Of a stretch of 22,363 nt of DNA, positions 923 through 22,363 are shown one piece after another. A program made the position numbers and the translations under genes. Source of the DNA: an uncultured bacterium (lineage in GTDB: Bacteria; Gemmatimonadota; Gemmatimonadetes; Gemmatimonadales; Gemmatimonadaceae); the NCBI GenBank assembly GCA_963978095.1, contig CAXBQP010000049.1, positions 1 through 22,363 on the forward strand. The letters run 5' to 3'. Within the stretch, counting starts at the first letter, position 1. Each line of letters opens with the position of its first letter. A model generated the notes under the pieces. That model saw nothing but the letters and a program-made list of their open reading frames with translations, was not told the origin of the DNA and searched no databases.

Positions 923-2652
923 GGGCGGCCGCGGCTGCTCCGGTTGGTGCGACGGTCGCTGGTGCTCCGGCCCCCGGCGCGGCCTTCCCGGGCGGTGGTC
1001 GTGGAGGCGCAGCGGCCGTGCCGACCGGGCGTGGCGGCGGGCAGGACCGCGAGTGGTATCGCGGCATCCAGTTCACCCAGGAAGACATCAACACGTTCAC
1101 GCGCCGCTCCAATACGAACTACATGGAAACGGGCGTACTCTCCTCGCTGCAGCTCACCGCGATGTTCCCCGCGATGGTGCTGGAGAACTTCTACATCAAG
1201 ACGCGCAACTCGATCGAGGAAGGCAAGCACAAAGCGCCGTACGGCTTCGTGGTCCCGGTGCAGCGCGACATGACCAAGGTCGCGGAGTTCATCAACATCC
1301 TGCGCATCCAGCGCATCGAGGTCGGCCAGGCCACGGCGGCATTCAAGATCGGCACCACCACGTATCCGGCGGGCTCGTACGTCATCAAGCGCGACCAGCC
1401 CTACGGTCGCCTCGCCAAGAACCTGATCGAGAAGCAGAACTATCCGGATCAGCGGTTGAACACGTACGACGACAGCGGCTGGTCGATGGGGATGGCCTTC
1501 AATATCGACTACGCGGAGATCGCGGATTCGGCGATCCTGAACGTTGCCGCGACGCCCGTCGAGAAGGTGAAGCTGGCGGGGAAGACCACCGGTGCCGGCA
1601 CGGCGGGGATCGCGGTCGCGCATCTGGGCTCCAACAACATGATCTCGCTGCGCTACAAGCTGAAGAACGTGCCGATGCAGATCGCCGAGAAGTCGTTCAC
1701 CGTCGACGGCGTCGAGTTCCCGGCGGGTTCGTTCATTATTGCTGACATGGCGCAGGCCAACGCCGTGCGCGCGGCGGTGCAGGAACTCGGCCTGACGGCC
1801 GCCAATCTCACCGCCAAGCCCTCGGTGCCGACGCACGATGCCGATGTGCCGCGCATCGCGATCTTCTCCACCTGGGGCGGCACGCAGAACCTCGGATGGT
1901 ACCGTCTGACCTTCGATCAGTTCGGCGTGCCGTACGACCTGATCTACAAGGAGCAGGTGAAGCTCGGGAATCTCCGCGCCAAGTACGATGTGATCCTGAT
2001 GGCGGAGCAGAACATGAGCAAGCAGACCGTGCTCGCCGCGCCCGCTGCCAAGCCGCAGCCGTACAAGAAGAGCGAGAAGTATCAGTTCCTCGGCATGTAC
2101 GGAGAGACCGATGACATGTCCGGCGGCATCGGCCAGGAGGGGGTCGATGCCTTTGCCGCCTTCCTCGACGCCGGCGGCACGCTGATCGCCGTCGGTGACG
2201 CGGCGCGCCTGCCAATCGACTTCGGCTGGGCGCGCAGCGTCGACAAGGCGCCGGTGCCCGGGCTGACGTCGCAGCGTCCGCTCGTGCAGGGCGAGATCGT
2301 GCGGCCGGAGCATCCGGTGTTCTATGGCTACTCGGCCACCAAGATGCCAGTCAAGTATGTCGGCGGCAGTCCGCTCAAGGTCGGCGTGGCCGACGAAGGG
2401 AATGTGCTCGCCCGCTATGTGGGCGGTGACGCTGCCGTCCTCTCCGGGCTCATGACGGGCGCCGATTCGCTCCGTGGGAAGCCGTACGCGGTGGACATCC
2501 CGCAGGCCTACAAGGGGCATGGACGGGTGGTGATGTTCTCCAACAATCCGATCTACCGGTGGCAGAACCACGGCGAGTTCAACATGATCTTCAACTCGGT
2601 GCTCAACTGGAACGACGAGCCCAAGCCCGAAGCGCCGAAGATCGTGCCGTAG
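901..2652 (+). CDS. C-terminal part of a large secreted M14 zinc-carboxypeptidase-like protein (5'-truncated; the GTG at 1018 is probably not the true start)
   Basis: Frame is open and coding-like from ~901 (GGGGGRGGAAAAAP...). It contains EWYR, YPAGSYVIKRDQPY, YDDSGWSMG, FLDAGGTLIAVGDA and NPIYRWQNHG, segments I recall from the C-terminal region of M14-like peptidases in Acidobacteria/Gemmatimonadota. Strong GC3 bias; no zinc-ligand motif in the visible part. Confidence 0.7.
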   Translation, partial: GGGGGRGGAAAAAPVGATVAGAPAPGAAFPGGGRGGAAAVPTGRGGGQDREWYRGIQFTQEDINTFTRRSNTNYMETGVLSSLQLTAMFPAMVLENFYIKTRNSIEEGKHKAPYGFVVPVQRDMTKVAEFINILRIQRIEVGQATAAFKIGTTTYPAGSYVIKRDQPYGRLAKNLIEKQNYPDQRLNTYDDSGWSMGMAFNIDYAEIADSAILNVAATPVEKVKLAGKTTGAGTAGIAVAHLGSNNMISLRYKLKNVPMQIAEKSFTVDGVEFPAGSFIIADMAQANAVRAAVQELGLTAANLTAKPSVPTHDADVPRIAIFSTWGGTQNLGWYRLTFDQFGVPYDLIYKEQVKLGNLRAKYDVILMAEQNMSKQTVLAAPAAKPQPYKKSEKYQFLGMYGETDDMSGGIGQEGVDAFAAFLDAGGTLIAVGDAARLPIDFGWARSVDKAPVPGLTSQRPLVQGEIVRPEHPVFYGYSATKMPVKYVGGSPLKVGVADEGNVLARYVGGDAAVLSGLMTGADSLRGKPYAVDIPQAYKGHGRVVMFSNNPIYRWQNHGEFNMIFNSVLNWNDEPKPEAPKIVP

Positions 2653-2670
2653 CGGCTCGACATCCGCGAA

Positions 2671-2711
2671 CGAAAGGGGCGGCGACTGATGCTCGGTCGC
2701 CGCCCCTTTCG
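2671..2711. terminator. Bidirectional intrinsic terminator-like hairpin between convergent genes
   Basis: CGAAAGGGGCGGCGAC...GTCGCCGCCCCTTTCG, a 16-bp perfect inverted repeat with A/T runs on both arms, 19 nt after the stop at 2652. Confidence 0.8.
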
Positions 2712-2729
2712 CTCTCGCTTCCTCGAGGT

Positions 2730-2840
2730 TCAGGCCACTGGTTCGATGGCGTACTTGAACAAACAGAGACGCCCCTGCTCGACGCCCGTGAACTGGAGCA
2801 AGCGGGTTCCGCGCGTCAGGCGTCCCGCGTTCGTGCTCAC
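2730..2840 (-). CDS. Possible 36-aa small protein (MSTNAGRLTRGTRLLQFTGVEQGRLCLFKYAIEPVA)
   Basis: GTG start overlaps the upstream TGA (GTGA, 2837-2840) and the ORF stops just before the terminator; no recognisable motif. Confidence 0.3.
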   Translation of the reverse strand: MSTNAGRLTRGTRLLQFTGVEQGRLCLFKYAIEPVA

Positions 2841-4288
2841 TGGCACTTCCCCAGATCGACCTTCGCCGTGGCGCCGCGCGCCACCGAGACGTCTGCCGAC
2901 ATCGACGTCCCCTTCAGCTTGCAGCTCACCGTCCACTGCTCGGGAATGAGTTCCTGCCCGTGCTGGCTCGGACGCGACGACGGGTTCACATGCCAGAGGA
3001 ATGGCCCACGCCCCTTGGGTACGACCGTCGTGGCGGTCAGCTCCATCGGTTGCTTGATGATCGGGCCGCGCGTGCTGTCGCGGTCGCTCAGCAACACTGG
3101 CGCCGATTCGAGCACGATCTTCTTGCGCAGCGTGAGCGTCGCACCGGCTGGCGCCTTGATCTCGAGCACGGCGTGCAAGGCTGGGTCGGCCGCGGCTTCG
3201 AGGAGGCGCAGGTAGCCGGCACGCGAGCTCGATCCGGGATACGCCCCGGTGCCGAAGTACTGATCGACGACGAACGAGTACGCTGGGTGGAACCCGCGAT
3301 TGCCGGGCGTATTCTCGAAGGTGAAGGCGTAGGTGCCGGCGGTGTAATACGCCTGTTCCTCCATCGTCCCGCTCGCGTTGTAGTAGACCTTGGGCCACGG
3401 GCCGGCGTCCCACTTGAGGTCCTTGCCGAGGAGCTGCGCGACCGAGTCGTACTGCGCCACATCGAACGGAGTCGGCTCATCGGTGGTGCTCGGCACGCGC
3501 AGCACCTTCGCGTCCGGCGTGTGATTGCTGAGCGCCACGACGACCTGATGCGAGGCGAAGAGGTCGCGCATATTCTGGATTTCGGGCTCCGAGAAGGGAG
3601 CCGCACCGCGGTAGCTTTGGCCGTTGGGTGCCGCGTTGGCGCCGATGCCGCCCCAGAAGGCACCATAGTTGCGGTTGAGATCGACGCCCGCCCCAGCGTT
3701 CAGCGGATTGGCGCACTCGGCGTACGTCGGATCCTTGCCGTCGGCGACGCGGCAGTTCTTCCGCTTCTGCTCGTTGATGAGCGTGCGCGAGAGGTCGAAC
3801 CCGTCGGGATTCACGATCGGCACGGCGATGAAGCGGACCTTGTCGAGCGCCGCCGTGATGCGAGGATCCTTGCCGTCGTTCTGCAGCAGGTCGTGGATGA
3901 ACTCGAGGGTGAGTTCGACCGTCGGCCACTCGCGGGAGTGGTGCAGCCCGGTCATCACGAACACCGGCTTCCCCGAGGGGGTCTTCACATCGTGCGTGAT
4001 CTCGAGCGCCCAGACGGTGCTCCCGAGGTTCGTCTTGTGCGGGAGGGCGAAGCGCTTGACCTTGGTGGGGAAGGACGCCTCGATCCGCTCCATCTCGAGG
4101 TTGGCCTCGGTGAGCGTGCGGTAGGTGACGCGCCCGGTCGGGAGGGGAGACGAGGTCAGCGGGGGCGTGGCGGGTTGCTGTTGTCCGCTTCGGCCTCCGC
4201 CCGGGGCACCCGCCGGCGGGCCACCCTGCGCGAGGAGGGAGGAGGAGAGCACGGTCAACAGCGCGGCAGCGGCACGTGAGCGGGTCAT
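2837..4288 (-). CDS. Secreted M14-family zinc carboxypeptidase
   Basis: Signal peptide; Zn motif GLHHSREW, PIVNPDG, RKN, GVDLNRNY, APFSEPE, third ligand in LSNHT, catalytic Glu in FTFEN. Confidence 0.9.
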   Translation of the reverse strand: MTRSRAAAALLTVLSSSLLAQGGPPAGAPGGGRSGQQQPATPPLTSSPLPTGRVTYRTLTEANLEMERIEASFPTKVKRFALPHKTNLGSTVWALEITHDVKTPSGKPVFVMTGLHHSREWPTVELTLEFIHDLLQNDGKDPRITAALDKVRFIAVPIVNPDGFDLSRTLINEQKRKNCRVADGKDPTYAECANPLNAGAGVDLNRNYGAFWGGIGANAAPNGQSYRGAAPFSEPEIQNMRDLFASHQVVVALSNHTPDAKVLRVPSTTDEPTPFDVAQYDSVAQLLGKDLKWDAGPWPKVYYNASGTMEEQAYYTAGTYAFTFENTPGNRGFHPAYSFVVDQYFGTGAYPGSSSRAGYLRLLEAAADPALHAVLEIKAPAGATLTLRKKIVLESAPVLLSDRDSTRGPIIKQPMELTATTVVPKGRGPFLWHVNPSSRPSQHGQELIPEQWTVSCKLKGTSMSADVSVARGATAKVDLGKCQ

Positions 4289-15812: not shown

Positions 15813-16406
15813 ATGAGCATCCCCGTCATCCTCGCATCGGCGTCACCCCGTCGCCGAGAACTCCTGACGCTGATCGGCATCCCGCATGAGGTGCGTCCGG
15901 CAGACATCGATGAGACGCTCTTCCCGGGGGAGAGCCCGGTCGGGCACTCGGAGCGGCTTGCGCGCGGCAAGGCGCACGCGATCGCGGCGCGCGCTGGCGA
16001 CGCAGTGGTCATCGCGGCCGACACGATCGTCGTCGTCGACGGCGACATCCTCGGCAAGCCGCGCGACGTGGCGCATGCCGCCGAGATGTTGCGGCGACTG
16101 AGCGGCCGTCAGCACACCGTGTTCACCGCAGTCGCGGTCGCGCGCGGCGCGCAGACCGAATCGGCGGTGGAGTCGGTAGAGGTGGTGTTCCGGGCGCTGA
16201 CCGACGAGGAGATCAGCGCGTACATCGCGACGGGCGAGCCGATGGACAAGGCGGGGGCGTACGGCATCCAGGGCTACGGCGCGACGATTGTCGAGCGCGT
16301 CGAGGGCGACTACTTCAGTGTGATGGGGCTGGGGATGCGACGGCTCGTGGCGCTCCTGGAGCGGGTCGGCGTGCGCTATCGGTTCGGCGCACCGCTCGAG
16401 GGGTAG
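15813..16406 (+). CDS. maf: Maf-family nucleoside triphosphate pyrophosphatase (YhdE/dTTP-UTP type)
   Basis: ILASASPRRRELL, IAADTIV, ILGKP, LSGRQHTVFT, GEPMDKAGAYGIQG, GDYFSVMGL. Confidence 0.95.
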   Translation: MSIPVILASASPRRRELLTLIGIPHEVRPADIDETLFPGESPVGHSERLARGKAHAIAARAGDAVVIAADTIVVVDGDILGKPRDVAHAAEMLRRLSGRQHTVFTAVAVARGAQTESAVESVEVVFRALTDEEISAYIATGEPMDKAGAYGIQGYGATIVERVEGDYFSVMGLGMRRLVALLERVGVRYRFGAPLEG

Positions 16407-16463
16407 GGACCAACAGCGCCGCGCGCGCCGGACCGCGAAGGGCGCGCCGCGAGAGCCGATCGG

Positions 16464-16898
16464 TCAGGCTGGGAGCAGTCGCTCCAGCTCCGCTCGCTGC
16501 CGCACGAGGTCGGCGAGCGTGACGCCGTCGAGCACGGCGAGGAAGGCCGCGAGCGCGCGGTCGAGCGTTCCGGCGATCATGCAGGCCGGCGCGATCGGGC
16601 AGCTCACATCGGCGTCCTGCTCGAAGCACTCGACGAGCGCCATGCACTCTTCCGTGGCACGTACGACATCGCCGATGATGATGGCTTCGGGTGGCTTGGC
16701 CAGCCGCACACCACCCGACCGTCCGCGGGTGGTCTCGACGTAACCGAGTTGGGCGAGACGCCCGATCACCTTGAACAGGTGGTCTTCGGACATGCGCATG
16801 CGCCGGGAGATCTCGGGCACGGTGATCGACGCGCCGTCAGTGATGCCGAGGAAGGTCAAGCAGCGCAACGCGTTATCGGTATAACGAGTCAGTCGCAT
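16464..16898 (-). CDS. nsrR: Rrf2-family transcriptional regulator, NsrR-like (NO-sensing Fe-S repressor)
   Basis: MRLTRYTDNALRCL, SEDHLFKVI, ETTRGRSGGVRLAKPP, GDVVRATE, three-Cys cluster LVECF...SCPIAPAC; SD GGAG upstream. Confidence 0.85.
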   Translation of the reverse strand: MRLTRYTDNALRCLTFLGITDGASITVPEISRRMRMSEDHLFKVIGRLAQLGYVETTRGRSGGVRLAKPPEAIIIGDVVRATEECMALVECFEQDADVSCPIAPACMIAGTLDRALAAFLAVLDGVTLADLVRQRAELERLLPA

Positions 16899-16962
16899 GG
16901 GCTACTCCGTTGAGCAACGTAGGGGAAAGACGGACGGAACTTCGGGTTCTGTCGGACTTTTG

Positions 16963-16985
16963 AAGTTGCAGACAAGCTGCAGCTT
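16963..16985. promoter_or_regulatory. Putative NsrR/Rrf2 operator (11-1-11 inverted repeat)
   Basis: AAGTTGCA-GACAAGC-TGCAGCTT has the same 23-bp geometry and AAGnTGCA half-site as the known NsrR box (AAGATGCA-N7-TRCATCTT); it lies in the nsrR/nosZ divergent intergenic region. Confidence 0.7.
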
Positions 16986-17068
16986 TTGTGCGTTCCCGTC
17001 AGTCGGGTGATGTCCCGACACGGAGCAGGGGTTCCACGAAGCTCATTCCCCACGCACGAGGTACGAAG

Positions 17069-19087
17069 ATGGCCACATCTGTGAAGTCCCGCTGGATCGC
17101 CGGCGGTGCGCTGGTCGCGGCGACCGTGTTCATCCCTTATGCCTGCGCTCCTCGTGCGGGCAGCGGTGGGGGGGCGCTAGCCGTCGCGAGTGACGCGGCC
17201 CAACGGACTTACGTGGCGCCCGGCAGCTACGATGAGTTCTACGCCTTCATGTCCGGTGGGTTCAACGGGCAGATCGGCGTCTATGGCCTTCCCTCGGGTC
17301 GCCGGCTGAAGACGATCCCCGTCTTCTCGCAATATCCCGAGAACGGTTACGGCTACAACGAAGAGACGAAACCGATGCTCAACACGTCCTTCGGCTTCGT
17401 GCCGTGGGACGACACGCATCATCCGGCGCTCTCGCAGACGAAGGGCGAGGATGATGGCCGCTGGCTCTTCATCAATGCGAACAACACGCCCCGCATCGCG
17501 CGCATCGATCTGACGCGCATGGAGACGGACGAGATCCTCGAAATCCCGAACGCCGGCGGCAACCACGGCTCCCCCTTCGTCACGGCGAACAGCGAGTACG
17601 TGGTGAGCTCGACCCGCTTCTCGGTGCCGGTGCCCAACACCGACATGCCGATCAGCGACTTCAAGAAGAGCTTCAAGGGACAGATCTCCTTCATCAAGGC
17701 CGACGAGCCGGGCAAGATGGGTGTCGCGTTCCAGATGATCGTGCCGGGCTTCGACTACGACCTCGCCCGCGCGGGGAAGGGGCCGAGCCATGGGTGGATG
17801 TTCCTGAGCACGTACAACACCGAGCAGGCCAACTCGCTGCTCGAGGTGAACGCGTCCCAGAACGACAAGGACTTCGTCGCCGCCGTGAACTGGAAGGCGA
17901 TCGAGGCCTGCTCGAAGGCGGGGAAGTCGCGCAATGCCCCGGCCGACTATCTGCACAACTACGTCGATCCGTTCTCGCGCACGGCCAAGAGCGAGCACGT
18001 GAACTCGGTCAATCAACTCGTCGCCAAGGACTGCCCGGGCGCCATCTATCTCCTGCCGACCCCGAAGTCGCCGCACGGCGCCGACGTGGATCCGACGGGC
18101 GAGTACATCGTCGCCGGCGGCAAGCTCGCGACGGTCATCCCGGTGCACTCCTTCAGCAAGATGCTGAAGGCCATCGAAGCCAAGGACTTCGAAGGGGAGA
18201 TCGAGGGGATCCCGGTGCTCAAGTACGCCTCGACGCTCGCGGGTGAGGTCAAGAACCCGGGACTCGGACCGTTGCACACCGAGTTCGACGGCAAGGGCTA
18301 CGCCTACACCTCGTTCTTCATCTCGTCGGAAGTCGTGAAGTGGAAGCTCGGGACCTGGGAGGTCGTGGACCGCGTGCCGACGTACTACTCGGTCGGTCAC
18401 CTCATGATCCCCGGCGGCGGCACCACCAAGCCGAAGCCGAAGTATCTCGTCGCGATGGACAAGATCACGAAGGACCGCTATCTGCCAACGGGCCCGGAGC
18501 TCGCACAGAGCGCCCAGTTGTACGACATCTCGGGCGACAAGATGAAGCTCCTGCTCGACTTCCCGACCGAAGGCGAGCCGCACTACGCCCAAGCGATTGA
18601 GGCGAGCAAGATCCGCGAGCAGCAGGTGAAGTTCTACAAGCTCGCCGAGAACAAGCACGCGATGGTCACGCGCGCCGAGAAGGAGACGGGCGTGAGCCGC
18701 GAAGGGAAGAAGGTGCACGTGCGCATGACGGCCATCCGTTCGCACTTCGCTCCGGACAACATCGAGGGCGTGCAAGTCGGCGACACGGTGCTCTTCCACA
18801 TCACCAACCTCGAGCAGGACTGGGACGTCCCGCACGGCTTCGCCATCATGGGCAACCAGAACGGCGAACTGCTGATCATGCCGGGCGAGACGCGCACGCT
18901 GCGCTGGGTACCCGGGAAGCCGGGCGTCTACCCGATGTACTGCACCGACTTTTGCTCGGCGTTGCATCAGGAAATGCAGGGGTACGTTCGCGTGTCGCCG
19001 GTGGGCAGCAGCGTCGCGCTGAGCGGAACCCTCTCGAAGGGCCCAGGCGCTCCGGCGCCGGCCAAGGCCGACGAGAAGAAGAAGTGA
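17069..19087 (+). CDS. nosZ: Nitrous-oxide reductase, clade II (Sec-dependent)
   Basis: YAFMSGGFNGQ; all seven CuZ His (DTHH, GNHG, SPHG, GPLH, VGH, EPH); CuA site DVPHGF...YCTDFCSALHQEM (clade II form); no twin-Arg signal; GAGG SD before ATG 17069. Confidence 0.97.
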   Translation: MATSVKSRWIAGGALVAATVFIPYACAPRAGSGGGALAVASDAAQRTYVAPGSYDEFYAFMSGGFNGQIGVYGLPSGRRLKTIPVFSQYPENGYGYNEETKPMLNTSFGFVPWDDTHHPALSQTKGEDDGRWLFINANNTPRIARIDLTRMETDEILEIPNAGGNHGSPFVTANSEYVVSSTRFSVPVPNTDMPISDFKKSFKGQISFIKADEPGKMGVAFQMIVPGFDYDLARAGKGPSHGWMFLSTYNTEQANSLLEVNASQNDKDFVAAVNWKAIEACSKAGKSRNAPADYLHNYVDPFSRTAKSEHVNSVNQLVAKDCPGAIYLLPTPKSPHGADVDPTGEYIVAGGKLATVIPVHSFSKMLKAIEAKDFEGEIEGIPVLKYASTLAGEVKNPGLGPLHTEFDGKGYAYTSFFISSEVVKWKLGTWEVVDRVPTYYSVGHLMIPGGGTTKPKPKYLVAMDKITKDRYLPTGPELAQSAQLYDISGDKMKLLLDFPTEGEPHYAQAIEASKIREQQVKFYKLAENKHAMVTRAEKETGVSREGKKVHVRMTAIRSHFAPDNIEGVQVGDTVLFHITNLEQDWDVPHGFAIMGNQNGELLIMPGETRTLRWVPGKPGVYPMYCTDFCSALHQEMQGYVRVSPVGSSVALSGTLSKGPGAPAPAKADEKKK

Positions 19088-19092
19088 TGGTG

Positions 19093-19132
19093 CCGACGGC
19101 GGGCGGTGCCATCCGGTCCCGCCCGCCGTCGG
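19093..19132 (+). other. Intergenic GC-rich hairpin between nosZ and nosB-L
   Basis: CCGACGGCGGGCGG-N12-CCGCCCGCCGTCGG, a 14-bp perfect stem with no U-tract. Confidence 0.7.
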
Positions 19133-19152
19133 ATCTCCAAGGAGATGGCATC

Positions 19153-20214
19153 GTGTCACGCTACGCTCGAATCCTCATCGCGGTCGCCTCGCTCCTCCTG
19201 GCCTCGGGGTTCGTCCTGCCGCTCTGGCGGGTGGGGCTGATTGCCCCGCAGTACCCGGAGGGGCTCGGGATGCTGATCAAGGTCAACACCGTGGTCGGCA
19301 TGAAGGAGCAGGACCTGCATAGCATCAACGGGTTGAATCACTACATCGGCATGCAGAAGATCGAACCCGACACGATCCCCGAACTCAAGCTCATGCCCGT
19401 GATCCTCGGTGCGCTCGTTCTGACCGGACTTGGCGTCGCGGCCCTCGGCAAGAAGTGGCCGATGACCTTTTGGGCGGCGGCGCTCGGTGGATTGCAGGTG
19501 ACCGGGCTCATCGACTTCTGGAAGTGGGAGTACGATTACGGCCACGACCTCGACACCGTGAACGCCATCATCAAGATCCCCGGCATGAGCTACCAGCCTC
19601 CGGTGATCGGTTCCAAACAGTTGCTCAACTTCACCGCGACGTCCTGGCCCGCGGCGGGGGGATGGGCGTGGGTCGCGGCGGCGTTGCTCACGGCAGCGGC
19701 TTTGTGGATCACCTTCAAGCGGCCGCCGGCAGGCGGCCGCGCTGGTTCCGGGACCGCTCCTCGCGGTGCTGGGCTCGCGGCAGCGGCCGCCTTCCTCGTC
19801 ATGATCGGCGCGTGCGCGCAGGCCCAGCCTGAGCCGATCGCGCTTGGAAAGGACGCGTGCGACCAGTGTCGCATGACGATCTCCGACGCCCGCTTCGGCG
19901 GCGAGGCGATCACGACGAAAGGGCGCATCCTGCGCTTCGATTCCGTCGAGTGCCTCGCCGCATGGTCGCGCTCGGGCGATCTCGCGGCGGGCGCCCACTA
20001 CTACGTGATCGACCTGCAGCATCCCGGGACCTTCCTGCGCGCCGACTCCGCCGGCTTCCTGCGCGGCGTGATGATCGGCAGCCCGATGGGCGGGGCGGTG
20101 GTGGGGTTCGTCTCCGCCGCCGCGGCCGAGCAGGAGCGCGCGATGCTCGGCGGGGAGGTCGTCACCTGGGAGCAGCTCCGCGCCGCCCCCAAGTCGGCGG
20201 CGGGGCAGACCTGA
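19153..20214 (+). CDS. nosL: NosB-like membrane protein fused to a NosL copper-chaperone domain
   Basis: N-terminal PLW...APQYPEGL...INGLNHYIGM...YGHDLD...YQPPVIGSKQLLNF (clade II NosB). C-terminal CDQCRMTISD...FDSVECL...SPMG (NosL). GTG 19153 with AGGAGA SD. Confidence 0.88.
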   Translation: MSRYARILIAVASLLLASGFVLPLWRVGLIAPQYPEGLGMLIKVNTVVGMKEQDLHSINGLNHYIGMQKIEPDTIPELKLMPVILGALVLTGLGVAALGKKWPMTFWAAALGGLQVTGLIDFWKWEYDYGHDLDTVNAIIKIPGMSYQPPVIGSKQLLNFTATSWPAAGGWAWVAAALLTAAALWITFKRPPAGGRAGSGTAPRGAGLAAAAAFLVMIGACAQAQPEPIALGKDACDQCRMTISDARFGGEAITTKGRILRFDSVECLAAWSRSGDLAAGAHYYVIDLQHPGTFLRADSAGFLRGVMIGSPMGGAVVGFVSAAAAEQERAMLGGEVVTWEQLRAAPKSAAGQT

Positions 20215-20216
20215 GC

Positions 20217-21491
20217 ATGCGCGACCATCGCGGCCTGGCGATCCTGAGGGCGGCCAGGGGGCTCCTGCTCGGCGGCGCGTTCGCGATTGCAACGGCGGTC
20301 GCGACGGCGTCGGCACAGATCGTTGTCGATCCGCGCGGTCCCGTGCGGACGATCACCGAAGCGTTGGCCGCAGTGAAGCCGGGGGGGACCGTCACGATCC
20401 ACGCCGGGATGTATCGCGAGCCCACCGCGGTGATCCGCACCGCCGGCGTCACTGTGCAGGGCGAGGGATGGCCCACGCTCGACGGCGAGGGAGAGCGCGC
20501 CGTGCTGATCGTGGCCGCTGACGATGTGACCGTCCGCGGGCTCGAGGTCGCGCACACCGGAGTCTCGAACATCGAGGATCGCGCGGGGATACGCGTCCGC
20601 GACGCGGCCAATTGCCGCATCGAGCGGAACCGGCTCCGCGACAACCTGTTCGGCATCTATTTGCAACGCTCGCGTGGCTGTGTGGTGCGGGACAACGATG
20701 TCTCCGCCCACGGTGACGGGCAGTCCACCAGCGGGAACGGGATCCATATGTGGTACTCGCCGCACACCACGGTCGAGCACAATCACATCACCGGCCACCG
20801 CGACGGCATCTACTTCGAGTTCTCGCAGAACGGCCTGACCCGGGACAACACCAGCGAGCACAGTCAGCGCTACGGCCTGCACTTCATGTACTCCGACTCG
20901 TGCCGCTACGAGTCGAACATCTTCCGAGACAACAACTCGGGCGTCGCGGTGATGTACAGCCGGGGCATCACCATCCACCACAACCGGTTCGAGCGCTCGA
21001 TCGGCAGCGCCGCCTACGGGTTGCTGCTCAAGGAGATCCTCGGCGGTGAGGTCTCCGACAACGTGTTCAGTGAGAACTCCATCGGGCTCTACCTCGAGGG
21101 GTCCTCACACATGGTGATCCGCGACAATGATTTCCTCTCGAACGGCTGGGCCGCCAAGGTGCTCGCGAGCGCCATGGAGGATCGGTTCACCGGAAACCGG
21201 TTCGTGGGGAACGCGTTCGACGTGTCCACGAACTCGCGCTCGGCGAACTCCACCTTCGATCGCAACTGGTGGGACGCTTACAAGGGCTACGACCTCGACC
21301 GCGATGGCGTGGGGGACACCCCGTTCCATCCGGTGCGGCTCTTCGCGCTCGTGGTCGAGCAGCATCAGCCCACGCTCCTGTTGCTCCGCAGTCCCATCGT
21401 GGCGGTGCTCGATGCCGCCGAACGGGTGTTCCCGGTGCTGACGCCGGAAGCCCTGGTGGACAAGCGCCCGTTGATGAGATCGCCTCGATGA
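20217..21491 (+). CDS. nosD: Nitrous oxide reductase maturation protein NosD
   Basis: Signal peptide, parallel beta-helix repeats, GNGIHMWYS, RDGIYFEFS, RYGLHFMYS, VAVMYS, YKGYDLDRDGVGD, DKRPLM. Confidence 0.95.
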   Translation: MRDHRGLAILRAARGLLLGGAFAIATAVATASAQIVVDPRGPVRTITEALAAVKPGGTVTIHAGMYREPTAVIRTAGVTVQGEGWPTLDGEGERAVLIVAADDVTVRGLEVAHTGVSNIEDRAGIRVRDAANCRIERNRLRDNLFGIYLQRSRGCVVRDNDVSAHGDGQSTSGNGIHMWYSPHTTVEHNHITGHRDGIYFEFSQNGLTRDNTSEHSQRYGLHFMYSDSCRYESNIFRDNNSGVAVMYSRGITIHHNRFERSIGSAAYGLLLKEILGGEVSDNVFSENSIGLYLEGSSHMVIRDNDFLSNGWAAKVLASAMEDRFTGNRFVGNAFDVSTNSRSANSTFDRNWWDAYKGYDLDRDGVGDTPFHPVRLFALVVEQHQPTLLLLRSPIVAVLDAAERVFPVLTPEALVDKRPLMRSPR

Positions 21492-22255
21492 TCGCCGTGC
21501 GCGGGATCGACAAGCGATACGGCAGGCAGATCGCCCTCGACGACGTCACCTTCGAAGCGCGCACAGGTGCCGTGACGGCGCTGATTGGACCCAACGGCTC
21601 CGGCAAGACCACACTCATCAAGATCGTGCTCGGGCTCACGCGGGCCGACAAGGGCGCCGTCGCGCTCGCCGGCGTGCCGATCGATCGGGATGGCGACTAT
21701 CGCCGCCACCTCGGGTACATGCCGCAGGCGGGGCATTTCCCCGAGCATCTCACGATCGGCGAAGTGGTCGAGTTGGTCGATGCGCTGCGCCAAGGCACCG
21801 CCGTCGACGACGAACTGCTCCAGTCGTTCGCCCTCCCCGCCCTCTGGCACAAGAAGGTCGGCACGCTCTCCGGAGGCACGCGCCAGAAGCTGAGTGCGGC
21901 AATCGCCTTCCGGTACTTGCCCCGCTTGCTGATTCTCGACGAGCCCACCGCCGGGCTCGATCCGATCGCGTGCGGGATCCTCAAGGACAAGATCCGCGCG
22001 GTGCGCGCAGCGGGATGCACGGTGCTGATCACCTCGCACATCATGTCCGAACTCGAGGAACTCGCCGAGGACATCGCCTTCCTCTGCGATGCGCAGCTGC
22101 GCTACGACGGGACGGTGCAGGAGCTGTTGGTGCGCACGCGTCAGCCACGCTTGGAGGGCGCCGTGGCGGCGTTGCTCCGGCAGCGGAACGATCCCGTCCC
22201 CGAGCGCGCGGCCGGAACGGACGGCCAACCCGCACCCGCCGCGGAGGCACGATGA
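21488..22255 (+). CDS. nosF: ABC transporter ATP-binding protein NosF
   Basis: GPNGSGKT, YMPQ, LSGGTRQK, LILDEPTAGLDP, ITSH; ATGA overlap with nosD. Confidence 0.92.
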   Translation: MIAVRGIDKRYGRQIALDDVTFEARTGAVTALIGPNGSGKTTLIKIVLGLTRADKGAVALAGVPIDRDGDYRRHLGYMPQAGHFPEHLTIGEVVELVDALRQGTAVDDELLQSFALPALWHKKVGTLSGGTRQKLSAAIAFRYLPRLLILDEPTAGLDPIACGILKDKIRAVRAAGCTVLITSHIMSELEELAEDIAFLCDAQLRYDGTVQELLVRTRQPRLEGAVAALLRQRNDPVPERAAGTDGQPAPAAEAR

Positions 22256-22363
22256 GCACCACGCGACTCGTGGTCAGCGCCGGGATCCGCGACATGGCGG
22301 GGAACCGATGGCTCGCCGCCTATTTCGCGGCCTTCTTTGTGGTAGCCGAGGGGCTCTTCTGGT
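22252..22363 (+). CDS. nosY: ABC transporter permease NosY (partial, runs off the window)
   Basis: ATGA overlap with nosF; MSTTRLVVSAGIRDMAGNRWLAAYFAAFFVVAEGLFW resembles the NosY N-terminus (R-D-x-x-x-NRW then a TM helix); nosDFY order. Confidence 0.8.
   Translation, partial: MSTTRLVVSAGIRDMAGNRWLAAYFAAFFVVAEGLFW

Follow-up and report, generated by a model that had tools for sequence, protein, structure and literature searches.

Layout of the nosZ control region and its conservation

The stretch of DNA analysed here, referred to below as the window, comprises positions 1 to 22,363 of contig CAXBQP010000049.1 from an uncultured member of the Gemmatimonadaceae (phylum Gemmatimonadota), and has a G+C content of ~68%. 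It contains a gene for an Rrf2-family regulator that is divergent from nosZ, the gene for nitrous oxide (N2O) reductase. In the gap between the two genes lies an inverted repeat, AAGTTGCAGACAAGCTGCAGCTT, at positions 16963-16985, with the ATG of the regulator gene 64 nt away on one side and that of nosZ 83 nt away on the other. The original prediction, made from the DNA letters, had described the regulator as NsrR-like and the repeat as its operator, and had proposed that nosZ is derepressed by nitric oxide (NO) or, as an alternative, that the switch senses oxygen or redox state. The divergent arrangement across 170 bp and the position of the repeat are confirmed by the coordinates in Table 1. 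The predicted clade II nos operon was also recovered. NosZ scored 936.9 bits against the NCBIfam model for the Sec-dependent enzyme, TIGR04246 (cut-off 625), and 367 bits against the twin-arginine translocation (TAT)-type model, and residues 1-30 contain no twin-arginine motif. As TIGR04246 was passed, the TAT-type score was far lower and the twin arginine was absent, we assigned this nosZ to clade II.

The repeat is imperfect. When read as two arms of 8 nt separated by 7 nt, 7 of the 8 arm positions match (AAGTTGCA versus the complement of TGCAGCTT), and in the 11-1-11 reading this is 8 of 11. Two further symmetric readings overlap with it, a perfect 12-mer, AAGCTGCAGCTT, at 16975-16986, and a stretch with 83% complementarity at 16968-16991; distant relatives keep only the 16963-16985 register and not the two overlapping ones. 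The box was scored with a palindromic matrix based on 53 related Gemmatimonadota loci, from which the window and its two closest relatives had been excluded. This gave 25.4 bits for 16963-16985 and 8.15 bits for the runner-up in the 22-kb window. The maxima in 300 first-order Markov simulations of the window averaged 8.8 bits (standard deviation 2.6), the largest was 18.1 bits, and none of the 300 reached 25.4 bits. The box is more than chance. The runner-up is located inside nosZ (17714-17736), and a weak match to the matrix recurs ~650-740 nt past the nosZ ATG in relatives, with up to 13.8 bits in L075; this probably reflects a conserved stretch of coding sequence with some resemblance to the motif.

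Table 1. Position of the regulator gene, nosZ and predicted control elements in the window
Feature	Position	Strand	Basis
Rrf2-family regulator gene, NsrR-type, 144 aa (P0001)	16464-16898	minus	Pfam Rrf2 PF02082, 116.5 bits
Divergent control region of regulator gene and nosZ, 170 bp	16899-17068		Open reading frame (ORF) coordinates
Degenerate copy of second conserved element (GGGGAATCCCC-like)	16919-16935		De novo search, second optimum
Predicted operator, 23-bp NsrR-type box (11-1-11 inverted repeat)	16963-16985		Matrix from 53 other loci
Stem GTCGGG/CCCGAC between box and nosZ, possibly a 5' leader hairpin	17002-17019	+	Minimum-energy fold; weak
GAGG ribosome-binding site of nosZ, 7 nt 5' of ATG	17058-17061	+	31-locus alignment
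nosZ, Sec-dependent (clade II) nitrous oxide reductase, 672 aa (P0002)	17069-19087	+	NCBIfam TIGR04246
Rest of nos cluster: membrane region and NosL domain, nosD, nosF-like ABC ATPase, start of a further ORF	19153-22362 (approximate)	+	Pfam NosL, NosD, ABC_tran; NCBIfam NosD TIGR04247, 421 bits

Homologues of the regulator come from Gemmatimonadota, and one source labels many of them as NO-sensitive Rrf2 repressors. We surveyed the best 80 of 119 relatives in reference genomes, which were fetched by means of an alignment of 30 homologues. In 65 of these 80 loci nosZ was divergent and adjacent, with gap lengths of 129-251 bp. In another six it was found ~2.07 kb from the regulator gene, and in nine it was absent from the available DNA, which in one of these comprised just 194 bp upstream. 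The control unit was kept in 71 of the 80 loci. A de novo search for palindromic motifs in 55 distinct gaps, with the window left out and using 8 seeds, gave as its highest-information solution a 23-bp motif, AAGTTGCATCTAACATGCAACTT (19.25 bits; reached from 2 of the 8 seeds). The consensus of the family box, AAG(G/T)TGCA-N7-TGCA(C/A)CTT, has the same frame as the 11-1-11 operator of NsrR. The motif was situated 53-100 nt 5' of the nosZ ATG in 52 of the 55 gaps, and the other three contained a second box copy 75-78 nt before nosZ. The palindrome is conserved in orthologous loci, a check that the original prediction had suggested. When each locus in turn was left out of the matrix, the top match of the whole 2-8 kb locus fell inside the gap in 48 of the 55 cases. 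Nine loci with adjacent nosZ were not part of the motif set, their nosZ alignment beginning at residue 45-48, and seven of them carried a gap box of 24-31 bits. In the six loci with the 2-kb distance two boxes were present, the first ~70 nt from nosZ and the second ~100-130 bp ahead of the regulator gene, and in two loci in which nosZ is not adjacent (L021 and L069) the same motif precedes the regulator gene.

The sequence of the box varies together with that of the regulator. Complementarity at the mirrored box positions 4/20 and 5/19 was more frequent than expected from shuffled columns (p<0.001), with the limitation that the loci are mutually related, so that counts and shuffles overstate independence. 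Three pair types were found at positions 4/20, and the half-site classes, AAGGTGCA..TGCACCTT, AAGTGGYAT..ATRCCACTT, AATCTGGTAT..CCGAGATT and ATAGCTGCAG..GAAGCTAT, track the regulator clades. The AATCT..GAGATT class goes with the recognition helix MS(Y/H)EHLVKI instead of MSEDHL.KV, a change that is essentially a single event. These sequence comparisons support the view that the regulator and the palindrome preceding clade II nosZ belong together as a conserved pair.

One clade (L012, L013, L016, L040, L054, L059, L064 and relatives) has long gaps of 228-251 bp with two or three boxes, one of them 24-27 nt before the regulator ATG in L012, L013 and L054, and one or two 70-95 nt before nosZ, which suggests separate operators for two promoters. 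The gap and regulator sequences of L016, from a Gemmatimonadetes metagenome-assembled genome, and L018, from an Armatimonadota one, are identical, likely reflecting a binning error or a very recent transfer.

The gap contains several other elements. The stem listed in Table 1, located between the box and nosZ (16986-17068), is part of the minimum-energy fold. A stem is also found at this place in related loci, where it begins 8-10 nt 3' of the box, often reads GTCC..GCAAG..GGAC and has differing inner pairs. The folding energy of the 50 nt after the box, compared to shuffled sequences, gave a mean z of -0.88, with 8 of 55 loci below -2, and in a crude test on 26 loci at least 7 of 8 pairs were formed by 54% of own and 24% of swapped stem arms. 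The stem may be a 5' leader hairpin of the nosZ mRNA, to which these values lend weak support. Just 3' of the box, CGT at 16991-16993 is nearly invariant. On the regulator side of the box, ~45 bp away, there is a second conserved element, which was the second optimum of the de novo search (13.7 bits) and is visible in most gaps. Relatives have it in near-palindromic form (GTCGGGGAATCCCCGAC), and the copy in the window is degenerate (GTAGGGGAAAGACGGAC). Directly before the box there is a conserved CYGACT (here CGGACT, 16953-16958). Both may belong to a promoter or be bound by a second factor.

The start codon of nosZ was placed at 17069-17071. An in-frame GTG is present at 16988, and the ATG is favoured over it because the GAGG located 7 nt upstream is conserved; in the alignment of 31 loci its columns G81, A82 and G84 are invariant or nearly so. 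The ORF that follows nosZ (18952-20214) encodes a multi-helix membrane region (from ~19153) that continues, uninterrupted by a stop codon, into a lipobox-like LVMIGAC and a NosL domain. This ORF represents either a fusion or two genes that share a reading frame; no Pfam family matched its membrane part. The other side of the regulator gene is occupied by housekeeping genes, including maf, glmS and a phosphoglucomutase-family gene.

Type of the Rrf2 protein

The best relative of known structure was NsrR from Streptomyces coelicolor (ScNsrR; 5n07, E 1e-16). The cluster ligands of ScNsrR are reported to be three Cys and Asp8 of the partner subunit (PMC5411485). Residues D8, C91, C100 and C106 of the regulator align with Asp8, Cys93, Cys99 and Cys105 of 5n07, and they are invariant in the 30 homologues. 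Judged from this alignment, the regulator would possess the ligand set of ScNsrR, three Cys and Asp8. The original prediction had described a three-Cys protein; there are five Cys in all, and the three that are invariant are C91, C100 and C106. The AlphaFold model of the regulator, a monomer with a predicted local distance difference test (pLDDT) score of 90, fitted best to NsrR in the NsrR-DNA structure (7b0c_A), with a template modelling (TM) score of 0.80 and a root-mean-square deviation (rmsd) of 2.2. Other Rrf2 types (RsrR, IscR and CymR) gave a TM score of ~0.7 and an rmsd of 3-5.

The neighbouring genes of relatives point in the same direction. In two loci (L063, 3969-5603, and L076, 3969-5631), nirK, coding for copper nitrite reductase (352.6 bits, cut-off 296.3), comes after the regulator gene, and in L063 nirK is followed by an FGE-sulfatase (nirV-like) gene. 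A distinct palindrome, TATCGGCAT..ATGCCGATA, precedes the regulator gene in these two loci, and in L063 it is also present between the regulator gene and nirK. The six loci with nosZ at 2 kb (L017, L025, L027, L030, L032 and L039) contain two intervening genes (~2000-4000), one for a 449-aa membrane protein that matched no family (examined in L025), and one that combines DUF2249 with the N-terminal domain of the RIC/YtfE/ScdA family. The closest plasmid homologues are found in Roseomonas (55% identity), divergent from hmpA, and in Priestia (46%), beside hmpA, and an Azospirillum plasmid homologue (50% identity) is divergent from genes for an alternative oxidase and a truncated haemoglobin.

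Two other Rrf2 types were considered and rejected. The ligands of the [2Fe-2S] cluster of the redox sensor RsrR include Glu8 and His12, and the regulator has D8 and R12 at these positions; it matched the 6hsd sequence with an E-value of 6e-7, and the fit to this structure gave a TM score of ~0.70 and an rmsd of 4.6. For IscR, in which His107 is the fourth ligand, the model TIGR02010 gave 49.7 bits, below its cut-off of 207.6, and no isc or suf genes adjoin the regulator gene.

The distinction between NsrR and RirA was less straightforward, and several results count against an NsrR assignment. The regulator scored 113 bits against the NCBIfam NsrR model NF008240, below the cut-off of 182, and it scored higher, 137.4 bits, against the RirA model NF008886, although this is also below the cut-off, which for that model is 193. 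Sinorhizobium RirA itself reaches 288.6 bits on the latter. Among the homologues, a Cys spacing of C-X7-C-X5-C prevails, which is also that of the Sinorhizobium RirA reference. The original prediction had advised to place the regulator in a tree with named Rrf2 proteins. In our tree, based on 143 columns and six named references with several long reference branches, the Gemmatimonadota sequences grouped together with an approximate likelihood ratio test (SH-aLRT) support of 85, but this group was not separated among E. coli NsrR, the hmpA-linked homologues and RirA, so that the tree did not separate NsrR from RirA. NF008240 is a narrow model, centred on enterobacterial NsrR. E. coli NsrR scores 293 bits and the hmpA-linked homologues of Roseomonas (129.5) and Embleya (91.7) fail its cut-off as well, and for this reason the failure of the regulator says little.

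Position 8 is Asp in the E. coli, Roseomonas, Azospirillum and Embleya references, and Asn in Sinorhizobium RirA. RirA proteins have a conserved Asn8 and their cluster has no fourth ligand from the protein (PMC10510648); in an N8D variant of RirA the cluster was NsrR-like spectroscopically and was stabilised against oxygen (O2) and low iron, and iron sensing was lost. Because RirA has Asn8, Asp8 separates NsrR from RirA. The likeness to NsrR that had been predicted is thus supported by the ligand set, the predicted fold and the neighbour genes of relatives, and it does not extend to the score on the NCBIfam NsrR model.

Proposed mechanism and signal

On the whole, we consider it probable that the window contains a regulator-operator-target unit typical of Gemmatimonadota, consisting of an NsrR-type repressor, one box, and a nosZ that is derepressed by NO. 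In the window, nosZ is the sole candidate target of the regulator. The regulator would form a homodimer in which Cys91, Cys100 and Cys106 of one subunit, together with Asp8 of its partner, coordinate a [4Fe-4S] cluster. This holo-dimer would bind to the box and block transcription of nosZ, and probably of its own gene too. Nitrosylation of the cluster by NO would cause the protein to leave the DNA, so that nosZ and the accessory genes would be expressed. The presence of the cluster, repression, autoregulation and the role of NO as signal are what we infer; the gene order, the symmetric NsrR-register box at its fixed position, the NsrR-type ligands and fold, and the linkage of relatives to NO-related genes were observed directly in the comparisons described above.

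Besides the relatedness of the loci, a number of observations weigh against this proposal. The leave-one-out test failed in 7 of the 55 loci, all of them in clades with divergent half-sites. In L006, L008, L015, L038 and L074, no box of at least 10 bits was found near the regulator gene; the sole match in L074 scored 11.0 bits and is located ~1.8 kb downstream. The neighbours in these five loci are unrelated genes, with genes for TonB-dependent receptors in L038 and L074. Pfam and NCBIfam scans revealed no NO-producing or NO-detoxifying genes in the window, and a scan of 16400-17200 for sigma-70 promoters and terminators found neither, so that an overlap of the box with a promoter is hypothetical. 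Finally, Gemmatimonas aurantiaca T-27 is reported to have 'needed oxygen for nosZ transcription' (PMC6264515, citing Park 2017), and partly oxic conditions are described as essential to start N2O reduction (PMC9530729, citing the same study). An NO-only switch does not predict an O2 need, and the behaviour of G. aurantiaca therefore weighs against such a switch.

Two promoter assignments made by eye were discarded, one with CYGACT as -35 and TAnnAT in the box centre as -10, and the other with TTGAAG and the T-rich stretch 3' of the box, as in both the spacing was inconsistent across loci (14-19 nt).

The same regulator and box could also respond to O2, redox state or iron, with nosZ being switched on when the cluster is lost or altered by O2 or iron shortage, as in RirA. 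We regard this as rather unlikely, yet it is the main alternative. A holo-repressor with an O2-labile cluster would give the behaviour reported for G. aurantiaca, no NCBIfam model scored higher than that of RirA (137 bits), the spacing of the Cys resembles that in RirA, and the regulator genes of L038 and L074 have TonB-dependent receptor genes beside them. On the other hand, Asp8 is invariant, and RirA with Asp at this position no longer sensed iron and had a cluster that was more stable towards O2 and low iron. The register of the box is that of NsrR, and relatives are situated beside nirK, hmpA and a RIC-domain gene. A redox signal of the RsrR type is countered by D8 and R12, in place of the Glu8 and His12 of RsrR, and G. 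aurantiaca T-27 was found neither among the 80 loci nor among the 120 matches listed by protein name. The nearest cultured name among the matches listed was Pseudogemmatithrix spongiicola, with 93% identity to L079.

That the protein binds to the box but functions as an activator of nosZ, or has a dual role as IscR does, seems to us improbable. The promoter scan was negative, and a box at a fixed 53-100 nt from the ATG would suit an activator if the leader were short. Moreover, NsrR of Magnetospirillum is reported to activate some genes (PMC11014258). The NsrR cases considered here, however, describe repression, of hmp, ytfE, nir, nor and nosZ, and the conserved stem and CGT downstream of the box weakly suggest a transcript start near the box. 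The possibility that the palindrome is not the site of this regulator, and that it belongs to a promoter, serves another factor or arose by chance, we consider very slight: the operator role does rest on sequence, the window has two overlapping palindromes, and the second conserved element and CYGACT adjoin the box, so that other factors probably act in the gap, but the box is unique in the window at 25.4 bits, its arms co-vary symmetrically, its half-site class changes with regulator clade and recognition helix, and its motif is also found ahead of the regulator gene in loci with nosZ lacking or further away (L021, L069 and the six 2-kb loci).

The preferred reading, an NsrR-type repressor that releases nosZ, can be extended to the phylum. 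Across Gemmatimonadota, a dedicated, adjacent NsrR-type Fe-S switch might license clade II nosZ, being turned on by NO, from neighbours or from the organism's own NirK, or by transient O2, and regulator and box might have co-diversified into at least four specificity classes. We put this forward tentatively, as an idea that is somewhat more likely to need revision than to stand as worded. If true, it could explain the odd O2 requirement reported for G. aurantiaca, and it would offer a natural series for how Rrf2 proteins read DNA; the co-varying classes of operator and regulator are useful for studies of Rrf2-DNA recognition. Gemmatimonadota are abundant soil N2O consumers and are counted on as N2O sinks. 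As a control unit the locus is concrete and testable, since the protein can be named, the site is delimited to 23 bp and its place before nosZ is constant. Should NO be the signal, the removal of N2O by these bacteria would hinge on NO produced in their vicinity; should it be O2, the unit would account for the reported oxygen requirement of a cultured relative at the onset of nosZ transcription.

Comparison with known systems

The closest counterparts are NsrR of S. coelicolor (5n07 and 7b0c) and of E. coli. They share with the unit described here the Rrf2 fold, the three Cys and Asp8, and a 23-bp operator in the same register, which occupies the gap between divergent genes for regulator and target. 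Autoregulation is a likely shared feature, a site for ScNsrR being present at the gene that encodes it. The published NsrR motif is gATGyAT-N5-ATrCATc (Rodionov), and the E. coli NsrR sites identified by chromatin immunoprecipitation, such as that of ytfE, are 11-1-11 repeats in the same 23-bp frame (PMC5320621), which agrees with the form that the original prediction had assigned to the operator. Counted by hand, the window box is identical to the E. coli ytfE site at 16 of 23 positions, and the L065 box at 19 of 23. There are also clear differences. The target in the window is clade II nosZ instead of hmp, ytfE or hcp. The regulator has 37% identity to ScNsrR and 39.9% to E. coli NsrR, its Cys spacing is C-X8-C-X5-C instead of C-X5-C-X5-C (ScNsrR) or C-X4-C-X5-C (E. 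coli NsrR), the box centre is GTA-rich instead of TTT/AAA, and the regulator scores under the NCBIfam NsrR cut-off.

Rhizobial RirA, an Fe-S-dependent repressor, resembles the regulator in that its model gave the best NCBIfam score, and in its equal length and similar Cys loop (VECF...C-X5-C). In contrast, RirA has Asn8 and controls iron uptake genes, whereas the regulator, like all 30 aligned homologues, has Asp8 and is located at nosZ. DNR, NnrR and Nss, regulators of the Crp/Fnr type, have in common with the proposed unit an NO-responsive control of nosZ transcription, but they are activators with another fold that bind to TTGAT-N4-ATCAA. With up to 3 mismatches this sequence matched 53 times in the window and not once inside 16899-17068, in line with the original prediction, and no Crp/Fnr family matched among the window ORFs scanned.

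A precedent for control of nosZ by NsrR comes from Magnetospirillum gryphiswaldense, in which, according to a 2024 report, NsrR binds to and represses the promoter of clade I nosZ, deletion of nsrR raises nosZ mRNA levels, and an NO donor weakens binding (PMC11014258). As described there, this is a proteobacterial full denitrifier (nap, nir, nor and nos) with a global NsrR that has 14 target promoters and degenerate motifs, whereas the regulator in the window is dedicated, located beside nosZ, and has a sharp motif. For clade II, a BadM/Rrf2 regulator was proposed in 2013 to control the nos operon of Melioribacter roseus (PMC3534657), and in 2018 clade II nos scaffolds from marine sediment were reported to be enriched in Rrf2 regulators (PMC6264515). 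These cases resemble the window in having an Rrf2 gene beside a clade II nosZ-nosL-nosD-nosF-nosY cluster; the likeness is one of gene neighbourhood. They stem from lineages of the Ignavibacteria/Bacteroidetes type instead of Gemmatimonadota, and the passages concerned note the neighbouring gene without an operator, ligand analysis or phylum survey. As the literature searched offered nothing beyond such mentions of an Rrf2 neighbour, it appears that, outside Proteobacteria and Campylobacteria, the regulators that control clade II nosZ have for the most part not been characterised. The novelty that the original prediction had cautiously raised is thus partial: the kind of system is known from the 2013, 2018 and 2024 reports, no regulatory description of a Gemmatimonadota Rrf2 or NsrR protein was found in the literature searched, and what appears to be new is the conservation of the operator, the argument from the ligands and the survey across the phylum.

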